A DNA stretch of 3,757 bases from positions 1-3,757 of the IMG/VR virus record IMGVR_UViG_2681813227_000020; one strand, written 5' to 3'. Both the position numbers and the translations under genes were made by a program. The number at the start of each line of letters is the position of its first letter. The first letter of the stretch is position 1. The stretch is from a virus. Its lineage: Duplodnaviria > Heunggongvirae > Uroviricota > Caudoviricetes. Positions 1 to 2,196 of the stretch are shown here, piece after piece. The notes below the pieces were generated by a model that searched no databases, was not told where the DNA came from, and saw nothing but the letters and a program-made list of their open reading frames with translations.

Positions 1-786
1 ATGAGTACAGCACTCGCAACGCTGGCAGGGAAGCTGGCTGAACGTGTCGGCATGGATTCTGTCGCCCCACAGGAACTGATCACCACTCTTCGCCAGACGG
101 CATTTAAAGGTGATGCCAGCGATGCGCAGTTCATCGCATTGCTGATCGTCGCCAACCAGTACGGTCTTAATCCGTGGACGAAAGAAATTTACGCCTTTCC
201 TGATAAGCAGAACGGCATCGTTCCGGTGGTGGGCGTTGATGGCTGGTCCCGTATCATCAATGAAAACCAGCAGTTTGATGGCATGGACTTTGAGCAGGAC
301 AATGAATCCTGCACATGCCGGATTTACCGCAAAGACCGCAATCATCCGATCTGCGTTACCGAGTGGATGGATGAATGCCGCCGCGAACCATTCAAAACCC
401 GCGAAGGCAGAGAAATCACCGGACCGTGGCAGTCGCATCCCAAACGGATGTTACGGCATAAAGCCATGATTCAGTGTGCCCGTCTGGCCTTCGGATTTGC
501 TGGTATCTATGACAAGGATGAAGCCGAGCGCATTGTCGAAAATACCGCATACACTGCAGAACGTCAGCCGGAACGCGACATCACTCCGGTTAACGATGAA
601 ACCATGCAGGAGATTAACACTCTGCTGATTGCCCTGGACAAAACATGGGATGACGACTTATTGCCGCTCTGTTCCCAGATATTTCGCCGCGACATTCGCG
701 CATCGTCAGAACTGACACAGGCCGAAGCAGTGAAAGCTCTTGGATTCCTGAAACAGAAAGCCTCTGAACAGAAGGTGGCTGCATGA
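1..786 (+). CDS. bet: Red-beta (Bet) single-strand annealing protein, 261 aa
   Basis: ORF 1..786 translates to [21 protein letters not shown]...KASEQKVAA, which I recognise as near-identical to lambda Bet (261 aa). Stop TGA 784-786 overlaps the exo ATG at 783-785. Confidence 0.95.
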
Positions 787-1463
787 CACCGGACATTATC
801 CTGCAGCGTACCGGGATCGACGTGAGAGCTGTCGAACAGGGGGATGATGCGTGGCACAAATTACGGCTCGGCGTCATTACAGCTTCAGAAGTTCACAACG
901 TGATAGCAAAACCCCGATCCGGAAAGAAATGGCCTGACATGAAAATGTCCTACTTCCACACCCTGCTTGCTGAGGTTTGCACCGGTGTGGCTCCGGAAGT
1001 TAATGCTAAGGCGCTGGCCTGGGGAAAACAGTACGAGAACGACGCCAGAACCCTGTTTGAATTCACTTCCGGCGTGAATGTTACTGAATCCCCGATCATC
1101 TATCGCGACGAAAGTATGCGCACCGCCTGCTCTCCCGATGGTTTATGCAGTGACGGCAATGGCCTTGAGCTGAAATGCCCGTTTACCTCCCGGGATTTCA
1201 TGAAGTTCCGGCTCGGTGGTTTCGAGGCCATAAAGTCGGCTTACATGGCCCAGGTGCAGTACAACATGTGGGTGACGCGAAAAGATGCCTGGTACTTTGC
1301 CAACTATGACCCGCGTATGAAGCGTGAAGGCCTGCATTATGTCGTGGTTGAGCGGGATGAAAAGTACATGGCGAGTTTTGACGAGATGGTGCCGGAGTTC
1401 ATCGAAAAAATGGACGAGGCACTGGCTGAAATTGGTTTTGTATTTGGGGAGCAATGGCAATGA
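783..1463 (+). CDS. exo: Lambda-type 5'-3' exonuclease (Red-alpha), 226 aa
   Basis: ORF 783..1463 translates to [38 protein letters not shown]...GFVFGEQWQ, recognised as lambda exonuclease (226 aa). ATGA overlap with bet stop, the classic bet/exo junction. Confidence 0.95.
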
Positions 1464-1642: not shown

Positions 1643-1806
1643 GAACGAGTATCGAGATGGCACATAGCCTCGCTCAAATTGGAGTCAGGTTTGTGCCAAT
1701 ACCAGCAGAAACAGACGAAGAATTTCATACGTTAGCCACATCCCTTTCACAAAAGCTGGAAATGATGGTGACGAAAGCAGAAGCAGATGAGAGAGACCAG
1801 GTATGA
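1615..1806 (+). CDS. orf63: Small exo-xis region protein Orf63-like, 63 aa
   Basis: ORF 1615..1806, protein [64 protein letters not shown]-rich Shine-Dalgarno (GGGGGG 1603-1608) about 6 nt upstream. Overlaps the 3' end of orf60a by 28 nt in another frame, as in lambda. Size and position match lambda orf63. Confidence 0.75.
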   Translation: MHKASPVELRTSIEMAHSLAQIGVRFVPIPAETDEEFHTLATSLSQKLEMMVTKAEADERDQV

Positions 1807-1886
1807 CAACCACTGAATGCATTCTTCTGGCAGCGGGCTTCATATTCTGTGTGCTTATGCTTGCCGACATGGGACTTGTTCAATGA
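1803..1886 (+). CDS. Candidate 27-codon hydrophobic micro-ORF (MTTTECILLAAGFIFCVLMLADMGLVQ), unannotated in the ORF track
   Basis: ATG 1803-1805 overlaps the orf63 stop (TGA 1804-1806) and its own stop (TGA 1884-1886) overlaps ATG 1883 of the next gene, so it is ATGA-coupled on both sides. It encodes an uninterrupted ~15-residue hydrophobic stretch, long enough for a single membrane-spanning helix. No independent SD. Could be chance. Confidence 0.25.
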   Translation: MTTTECILLAAGFIFCVLMLADMGLVQ

Positions 1887-2098
1887 CACCTCAGCAAGAA
1901 AACGCCCTTCGCAGCATTGCCCGTCTGGCTAACTCTGAAATCAAAAAAGCCAGACAGCAGTTTCCGGATAAAAACGTCGATGACATTTGCCGTAGCGTAC
2001 TGAAGAAGCACCGCGAAACGGTAACGCTGATGGGATTCACACCGACTCATTTAAGCCTGGCAATCGGTATGTTAAACGGCGTCTTTAAGGAACGGTGA
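1883..2098 (+). CDS. orf61: Small exo-xis region protein in the orf61 position, 71 aa from ATG 1883 (93 aa if ATG 1817 is used)
   Basis: Open frame 1817..2098. The stretch from ATG 1883 (MTPQQENALRSIARLANSEIKKARQQFPDKNVDDICRSVLKKHRETVTLMGFTPTHLSLAIGMLNGVFKER) looks like a genuine small helical protein. The 22 codons from 1817 (MHSSGSGLHILCAYACRHGTCS) are Cys/His-rich, low quality, and overlap the micro-ORF frame. Gene symbol is positional (between orf63 and orf73), not sequence-verified. Confidence 0.55.
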   Translation: MTPQQENALRSIARLANSEIKKARQQFPDKNVDDICRSVLKKHRETVTLMGFTPTHLSLAIGMLNGVFKER

Positions 2099-2117
2099 AC
2101 ATGAAAAGCAAAATCAT

Positions 2118-2147
2118 CAGGGAGCTACAGGCTCCTTTTTTATTATT
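2118..2147 (+). terminator. Candidate rho-independent terminator inside the operon (hairpin GGAGC-tacag-GCTCC followed by TTTTTTATTATT)
   Basis: Stem GGAGC 2121-2125 pairs with GCTCC 2131-2135 around a 5-nt loop, extendable by A-U and G-U pairs at 2119-2120 / 2136-2137, then a T-run from 2136. Lies in the 98-nt gap between the orf61-position gene and orf73. Confidence 0.45.
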
Positions 2148-2196
2148 CGCATTCACCCTCAAGCGTATTAACCAACAATTCAGGGATTAATGAAAG

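Follow-up and report, generated by a model that had tools for sequence, protein, structure and literature searches.

A putative small gene encoding a 27-residue hydrophobic peptide upstream of the orf61-position gene in the early-left operon of lambdoid phages

Analysis of the DNA between orf63 and the gene at the orf61 position of a lambdoid prophage revealed that a 27-codon micro-ORF (positions 1803-1886, plus strand) probably represents a true small gene belonging to the early-left operon (pL, exo-xis) of lambdoid phages, judging from the way its sequence has evolved. An earlier note on this DNA had interpreted the micro-ORF as a possible unannotated gene, with lambda Kil as the precedent. 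The evolution typical of a coding gene, the placement of the SD motifs and a start of the downstream gene at 1883 agree with that interpretation; the word "unannotated" and the analogy with Kil had to be revised.

The window, i.e., the whole stretch of DNA that was analysed (3757 bases), was identified by its gene order and Pfam matches as an early-left (pL) exo-xis stretch of a lambdoid prophage. The record closest to it, a prophage in E. coli O55:H7 CB9615, shares 99.6% identity over positions 1600-2110. All genes considered here lie on the plus strand. They comprise bet (1-786), exo (783-1463), orf60a/DUF1317 (1460-1642), orf63 (1615-1806), the micro-ORF (ATG at 1803-1805, TGA at 1884-1886), a 71-aa gene that is the true "orf61-position" gene (1883-2098) and a 29/31-aa ORF encoding MNMKSKIIRELQAPFLLFAFTLKRINQQFRD (2095/2101-2190). 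Downstream of the latter are located orf73 (TraR/DksA family), an Ea22-like gene, two small ORFs and xis. The assignment of orf63 is based on a match to Pfam DUF1382 (E 7e-30) and on the same annotation in RefSeq relatives; its TGA stop occupies 1804-1806, and the orf63/DUF1382 protein has a solved NMR structure. Overlaps of the ATGA/GTGA type recur in the operon (bet/exo, exo/orf60a, orf73/ea22). In the case of orf60a, two in-frame ATGs are possible, at 1454 and 1460 (window 1454-1463), and the RefSeq start at 1460 gives an ATGA overlap with the exo stop. The 29/31-aa ORF, which only some records annotate, shows a dN/dS of 0.15 and contains an intrinsic-terminator-like hairpin (2119-2137) and a T-run; it probably corresponds to "orf2313", the 31-aa ORF reported on the basis of ribosome profiling in lambda. 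The annotated genes in the exo-xis block score as non-essential by CRISPRi (PMC10695390).

The micro-ORF encodes the peptide MTTTECILLAAGFIFCVLMLADMGLVQ. Its start overlaps the TGA stop of orf63 in an ATGA at 1803-1806, and its stop overlaps the ATG of the 71-aa gene in a second ATGA at 1883-1886. The frame opened by ATG 1803, its peptide and the two overlaps are thus present in the sequence as the earlier note had described them. The description of the peptide as almost entirely hydrophobic also proved accurate, with a GRAVY of 1.66 and a best Kyte-Doolittle mean of 2.38 over 19 residues (2.87 over 16). On the Kyte-Doolittle scale, the hydrophobic segment is long enough to span a bilayer. In the peptide, a short acidic-polar head (MTTTE) leads into a hydrophobic stretch of about 16-20 residues, and the tail (DMGLVQ) is again short; a single membrane helix is predicted at about residues 6-21/26. 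The only charged residues are E5 and D22. Since lysine, arginine and histidine are all missing, the peptide departs from the positive-inside pattern typical of membrane anchors, and the lack of lysine and arginine means that tryptic proteomics would miss it.

Ranked by hydrophobicity against every stop-free 27-residue segment that the six frames of the window contain, the peptide is in the top 0.2%. When the interior of the ORF was shuffled 200,000 times at the nucleotide level, 29% of the shuffles remained open and 0.046% were both open and equally hydrophobic. The micro-ORF is unlikely to be the product of chance. The only other stretch containing a 27-residue window as hydrophobic lies in a frame antisense to bet (256-348, minus strand; GRAVY 1.97); this frame forms no start-to-stop ORF of interest and was taken as a chance control, showing that hydrophobicity alone is no evidence for a gene. 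Two other explanations of the region were considered and rejected. An RNA element was discarded, as the region folds worse than its shuffles (z=+1.68) and an Rfam match is absent. A programmed -1 frameshift joining the peptide to the 71-aa protein was discarded as well, as inspection by eye revealed no conserved slippery heptamer, and the absence from the window of the T-run of the lambda allele also counts against it.

Phage lambda carries the same ORF (NC_001416 30925-31008, complement), encoding the peptide MTTTECIFLAAGFIFCVLMLADMGLVQ. In tblastn searches, copies of the peptide were found in 175 phage records and in 38 records of the plasmid collection; the phage copies all share at least 88.9% identity, and no copy below this level was found in phages and plasmids. 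Of 5426 complete E. coli genomes, 3144 (58%) contain the DNA of the micro-ORF, at 4262 places. The search of phages, plasmids and IMG/VR returned no diverged homologue of the peptide, all copies being at least 88% identical in protein, and a degenerate back-translated pattern for GFIFCVLML without the common Ile codon had no match in IMG/VR. As far as these collections indicate, the micro-ORF is confined to lambdoid phages of Escherichia/Shigella, and, with diverged homologues lacking, the comparative power is limited to population-level variation. Several candidates for divergent relatives were rejected. The "distant" relatives of the 71-aa protein P0106, P0111 and P0114 (49-54% identity) are indel-ridden assemblies and not examples of true divergence, and two apparent alternative N-termini turned out to be an IS66 insertion junction (P0046, 100 aa) and the edge of a prophage remnant (P0066, 76 aa). 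Lambda matches in Shewanella, Bradyrhizobium, Pseudomonas, Paenibacillus, Kitasatospora and others represent contamination with lambda DNA; the contaminant contigs (L098-L111, L104, L114) carry the A7 allele discussed below and are evidently lambda control DNA.

The micro-ORF is intact in 324 of the 329 loci that cover it, and three of the exceptions lose codon 27, the last one, only. This test has low power since protein identity among the copies is never below 88%. ORF intactness was also rejected as a discriminator of frames, as both overlapping frames are open almost everywhere: the frame opened by ATG 1817, which yields a 93-aa product by running into the 71-aa gene, is open in 328 of the 329 loci. 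About 5% of the 71-aa genes are not accompanied by any micro-ORF. The earlier note had regarded relatives that break this frame and preserve the overlapping one as a refutation of the gene. One such genome was found, that of Escherichia sp. E1V33. In E1V33, the junction GGAGGCGGCATGA, which comprises the SD and the ATGA, is kept and 14 nt are missing after ATGACAA, with the result that the micro-ORF frame is cut short and the coupled ATG shares its frame with the 71-aa gene. E1V33, which is one lineage, looks like a 14-nt deletion derivative. The micro-ORF is destroyed by this gap and is therefore dispensable. A natural fusion of orf63 with the micro-ORF occurs on six contigs, and IS66 insertions and prophage-edge truncations were also found at the locus.

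The reading frames were compared over 358 loci that could be aligned, drawn from annotated records, IMG/VR and metagenomes. Distinct (site, allele) changes were counted against the consensus, and with a transition:transversion weight of 2 about 25% of them are expected to be synonymous. The dN/dS values were obtained pairwise (NG86) among the major haplotypes. In the micro-ORF frame (1806-1882), 14 synonymous, 14 non-synonymous and one stop change were observed (p=0.0056; dN/dS 0.13). Third codon positions hold 15 of these 29 changes, and the sole stop change costs codon 27 only. For variants seen at least two times, the respective numbers were 12, 7 and 1 (p=0.0009). In the third frame of the same segment we observed 6, 22 and 1 changes (p=0.74; dN/dS 1.45), and in the 1817 frame 8, 19 and 2 (p=0.43; dN/dS 0.93 over 1820-1882). 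The frame-specific conservation that the earlier note had asked to be checked is thus found in the micro-ORF frame only, the off-frames being not significant. Among the neighbouring genes, the synonymous, non-synonymous and stop changes numbered 25, 28 and 3 for orf60a (p=0.004; dN/dS 0.19), 30, 37 and 0 for the 71-aa gene (p=0.0004; dN/dS 0.03) and 12, 32 and 1 for orf63 (p=0.38; dN/dS 0.35). The part of orf63 that does not overlap its neighbours (1643-1802) has no significant synonymous excess, and its dN/dS of 0.35 corresponds to a weaker constraint than that on the micro-ORF.

Because one of the samples had been fished with a pattern inside the micro-ORF, the test was repeated on differently anchored loci. 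With 120 metagenome loci anchored in the 71-aa gene, the micro-ORF frame gave 10 synonymous, 9 non-synonymous and one stop change (p=0.014). In this unbiased metagenome sample, 101 of the 105 covering copies are intact and 86 of the 105 encode the identical peptide. The substitution pattern indicates that the micro-ORF frame is under purifying selection at the amino-acid level and that the N-terminal extension of the 93-aa form is not; as all copies are at least 88% identical and distant homologues are missing, this signal rests on just 29 distinct changes.

The start signals of the micro-ORF were analyzed together with the boundary of the module to which it belongs. Upstream of ATG 1803 there is a weak SD-like stretch, TGAGAGAGA (1788-1796, plus strand), with a pairing energy of -5.3 kcal/mol with the 16S 3' end and a spacing of 6, so that in the commonest, orf63 context the SD of the micro-ORF is weak to modest. 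In 55 loci, a phage N6-adenine methyltransferase takes the place of orf63. At these loci, the similarity to the window starts exactly at 1803, the methyltransferase stop overlaps the micro-ORF ATG as ATGA, and a strong GGGAGG (-10.3 kcal/mol) is located 3-4 nt upstream of that ATG. This GGGAGG can serve the 1803 start only. The upstream proteins of the methyltransferase context (L004 1440-1510) and of E1V33 (L097 600-710) are unrelated, and both end in EAA followed by the stop, encoded by GAGGCNGCATGA. These shared ends suggest that the SD and the ATGA junction travel with the micro-ORF module.

The 71-aa gene has its own weak SD-like site at 1867-1875 (plus strand; core GGGA at 1871-1874), which pairs with -3.9 kcal/mol at a spacing of 7 to ATG 1883 and sits inside the micro-ORF. 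Its start codon is GTG in 38 of 337 loci and ATG in the others. A start of this kind, with a weak SD or a GTG and overlapped by the micro-ORF TGA, led us to infer translational coupling. The expression of the micro-ORF may then be pictured as follows. Being co-directional with its neighbours in the N-antiterminated pL unit, it would be transcribed together with them. Ribosomes that finish orf63, or the methyltransferase, would most likely re-initiate at the ATGA at 1803, aided by the modest SD in the former context and by the strong SD in the latter. The product would be a 27-residue single-helix inner-membrane peptide, and its translation would probably deliver ribosomes to the 71-aa gene via the second ATGA. 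As to the activity, analogy permits a weak guess that the peptide binds and modulates a membrane protein, like known small membrane proteins of enterobacteria, rather than acting as a lytic toxin.

The same features could be explained if the micro-ORF were translated only as a device coupling orf63 to the 71-aa gene and the peptide itself had no function. The ATGA overlaps at both ends fit this explanation, as coupling of translation at ATGA-type overlaps was strict for 13 of the 14 gene pairs tested, of which five came from E. coli (Huber et al. 2019, PMC6728339). It is also in line with the differences in start signals: where the micro-ORF is present, the 71-aa gene has the weak SD or GTG start, and where it is absent the gene has a better SD, as seen in L005, a locus with an MTIEH... 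module that was examined in detail (GAGG, -5.6 kcal/mol). A pure coupling ORF, however, need only stay open, yet the dN/dS of the micro-ORF is 0.13 and the peptide is identical in most of the unbiased metagenome copies and far more hydrophobic than the shuffles. We consider a functionless peptide unlikely.

The micro-ORF would be an untranslated artefact if the region encoded the N-terminus of a 93-aa Orf61 starting at ATG 1817. Many records and the Phi24B literature use the coordinates 1817-2098, PHROG 303 models the 93-aa form, the frame is open almost everywhere, and in E1V33 the ATG that has a strong SD and is ATGA-coupled reads the 1817 frame. Other observations speak against a start at 1817. 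The dN/dS of 0.93 in 1820-1882 is close to neutral and without synonymous excess. No usable SD was found in range of ATG 1817, the best one being -3.8 kcal/mol at a spacing of 13, and PGAP starts the gene at 1883. Homologues of the 71-aa gene that carry other 5' modules (MTIEH... or MTLKE...) and no micro-ORF have their first Met at the position corresponding to 1883. When the 93-aa form was modelled with AlphaFold2, residues 1-20 reached a pLDDT of about 48-55 and the helical domain behind them 76-89, and in the published modelling of the 93-aa Phi24B form, residues 1-23 were modelled inconsistently and were excluded (PMC8614690). The name "ZapA" is based on a Pfam match below threshold (E 0.018; 15.8 bits vs. 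a cut-off of 23.8), and E1V33 is most simply explained by the 14-nt deletion. For the 71-aa protein itself, we found no NCBIfam model and no solved homologue, and its AF2 model is a small helical domain. The neutral 1817 frame, the module boundaries, the SD positions and the low-pLDDT extension allowed us to conclude that the downstream gene starts at 1883, as the earlier note had proposed, and encodes 71 aa. The supposed N-terminal extension of the 93-aa form (1817-1882, plus strand) was judged not coding, and a micro-ORF that is only an artefact of a longer Orf61 is improbable.

It was also considered that the region is a non-coding spacer, with the ORF and its overlaps arising by chance and its conservation reflecting recent common ancestry. 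The close similarity of the copies, which leaves intactness with little power, the openness of both overlapping frames and the equally hydrophobic chance window antisense to bet would all be compatible with a spacer. It does not account for the three-base periodicity of substitutions and the synonymous excess, both specific to the micro-ORF frame, nor for a mosaic junction located exactly at the ATG with the SD retained; moreover, an untranslated gap of 76 nt would be odd among the densely overlapping genes of this operon. A spacer is therefore quite improbable. Dual coding, in which the micro-ORF peptide and a long isoform of the downstream protein are both translated, would agree with two frames open in nearly all copies and with the fused long form tolerated in E1V33, and it is scarcely credible given that common synonymous polymorphisms of the micro-ORF freely alter the residues of the other frame (dN/dS 0.93) and that ATG 1817 lacks an SD.

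The description of the micro-ORF as unannotated holds for RefSeq/PGAP and for every phage record opened, and fails for some GenBank records and for UniProt. Several E. coli assemblies in GenBank list the exact peptide as a "hypothetical protein" (e.g., KIG30274.1), UniRef contains it (A0A0A2SGE8), and the commonest variant of the peptide was called by gene callers on 981 contigs of the protein collection. RefSeq/PGAP leaves 1807-1882 empty and takes the downstream gene from 1883 (71 aa). Many phage records take it from 1817 (93 aa), some under the name "cell division protein ZapA". The hand-curated records of phage 21 and vB_EcoS_P27 use the start at 1883 and mark its ribosome-binding site inside the micro-ORF. 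Annotation of the micro-ORF itself was not found in any phage record opened. The peptide string gave no match in the searchable literature, and the peptide is absent from the supplements of an EHEC small-gene study and an Enterobacteriaceae microproteome study. According to a review, the extra ORFs detected by ribosome profiling of lambda in this region are only a 7-aa and a 31-aa ORF, not the micro-ORF (PMC8614690).

In the case of phage lambda, the annotated orf61 (NC_001416 30839-31024; L007 2040-2225, minus strand) begins within orf63, at an ATG, passes through the micro-ORF region in another frame, then covers the first ~22 codons of the 71-aa gene and ends in a frameshifted tail. The reference lambda sequence has seven A residues (A7) where the window has six (A6, 1943-1948), and this frameshifts the 71-aa gene. 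A6 occurs in 321 of 348 loci and A7 in 22, at least 18 of which are lambda itself. The same review states that lambda Orf61 "appears truncated" (PMC8614690). A comparison of the primer arms of the published deletion (PMC4699033) with the lambda sequence revealed that the delta-orf61 allele keeps codons 1-12 of the micro-ORF and deletes codons 13-27, i.e., the hydrophobic half of the peptide, and that the deletion ends inside the 71-aa gene. As this gene is already frameshifted in lambda, the peptide may account for at least a part of the orf61 phenotypes, which relate to the timing and the efficiency of the lytic development that follows induction. That the 27-aa peptide, rather than "Orf61", is the active product behind at least part of them is a tentative proposal drawn from the frameshift and the layout of the deletion, and we regard it as doubtful. 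If true, lambda and Stx phages would have in the peptide an early factor, so far unrecognised, that acts at the membrane and influences whether lysis or lysogeny results.

Should the micro-ORF be a gene, an early membrane peptide has gone unrecognised in lambda and in most Stx phages, and its sequence is present in more than half of the complete E. coli genomes. The "Orf61" proteins of published modelling and deletion work (lambda, 61 aa; Phi24B and 933W, 93 aa) would then be mis-drawn: their first 22-31 residues would be the micro-ORF read out of frame, the real product would have 71 aa and be frameshifted in reference lambda, and the published delta-orf61 phenotypes would confound two genes. 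The interest of the micro-ORF comes mainly from its presence in lambda and from the redrawing of orf61. Lambda is among the best-annotated genomes, and its exo-xis block, which affects the induction of Shiga-toxin prophages, is actively studied. The case also illustrates how a small gene can escape pipelines that scan intergenic DNA only, if a start codon is placed too far upstream.

The peptide MTTTECILLAAGFIFCVLMLADMGLVQ did not match any Pfam, PHROG, NCBIfam or PADLOC family. The precedent of lambda Kil, invoked in the earlier note, turned out to be only a loose one, as no sequence similarity links the peptide to Kil (no Pfam family matched at E<=1). Both are small non-essential products of the same pL operon that were long under-annotated. 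Kil is, however, a separate gene, located upstream of gam in the closest relative, and its 47-aa product acts on FtsZ in the cytoplasm and is not known to act as a membrane helix. With the type I toxins (Hok, TisB, Ibs, Ldr, ShoB) the peptide shares its very short length and the dominance of one hydrophobic helix. It differs from them in that the micro-ORF is embedded in a polycistronic operon and its translation is predicted to be coupled; a simple scan showed no antisense promoter-like site on the minus strand near 1803-1886, and no Rfam match to an antitoxin RNA was obtained at the micro-ORF. A further comparison is offered by the small single-pass inner-membrane proteins of enterobacteria, a class reportedly defined by Hemm, Storz and colleagues. 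Its members include KdpF (29 aa), YohP (27 aa), AcrZ and MgtS. Like the peptide, they are shorter than 50 aa, contain one hydrophobic segment of helix length, are missed by annotation pipelines and are often encoded between or overlapping larger genes. KdpF also resembles the peptide in the absence of basic residues. The micro-ORF peptide has no sequence similarity to these proteins and, unlike them, is phage-encoded, in a phage early operon. As in the ATGA-coupled gene pairs (PMC6728339), ATGA overlaps preceded by intragenic SD motifs are found, here on either side of the micro-ORF; the difference is that the micro-ORF is the middle member of a chain and has only 27 codons. The 31-aa "orf2313" (PMC8614690; window 2095-2190) is likewise a tiny, inconsistently annotated ORF of the exo-xis block, which differs from the micro-ORF in having been reported by ribosome profiling (PMC8614690) and in encoding an amphipathic and basic product.
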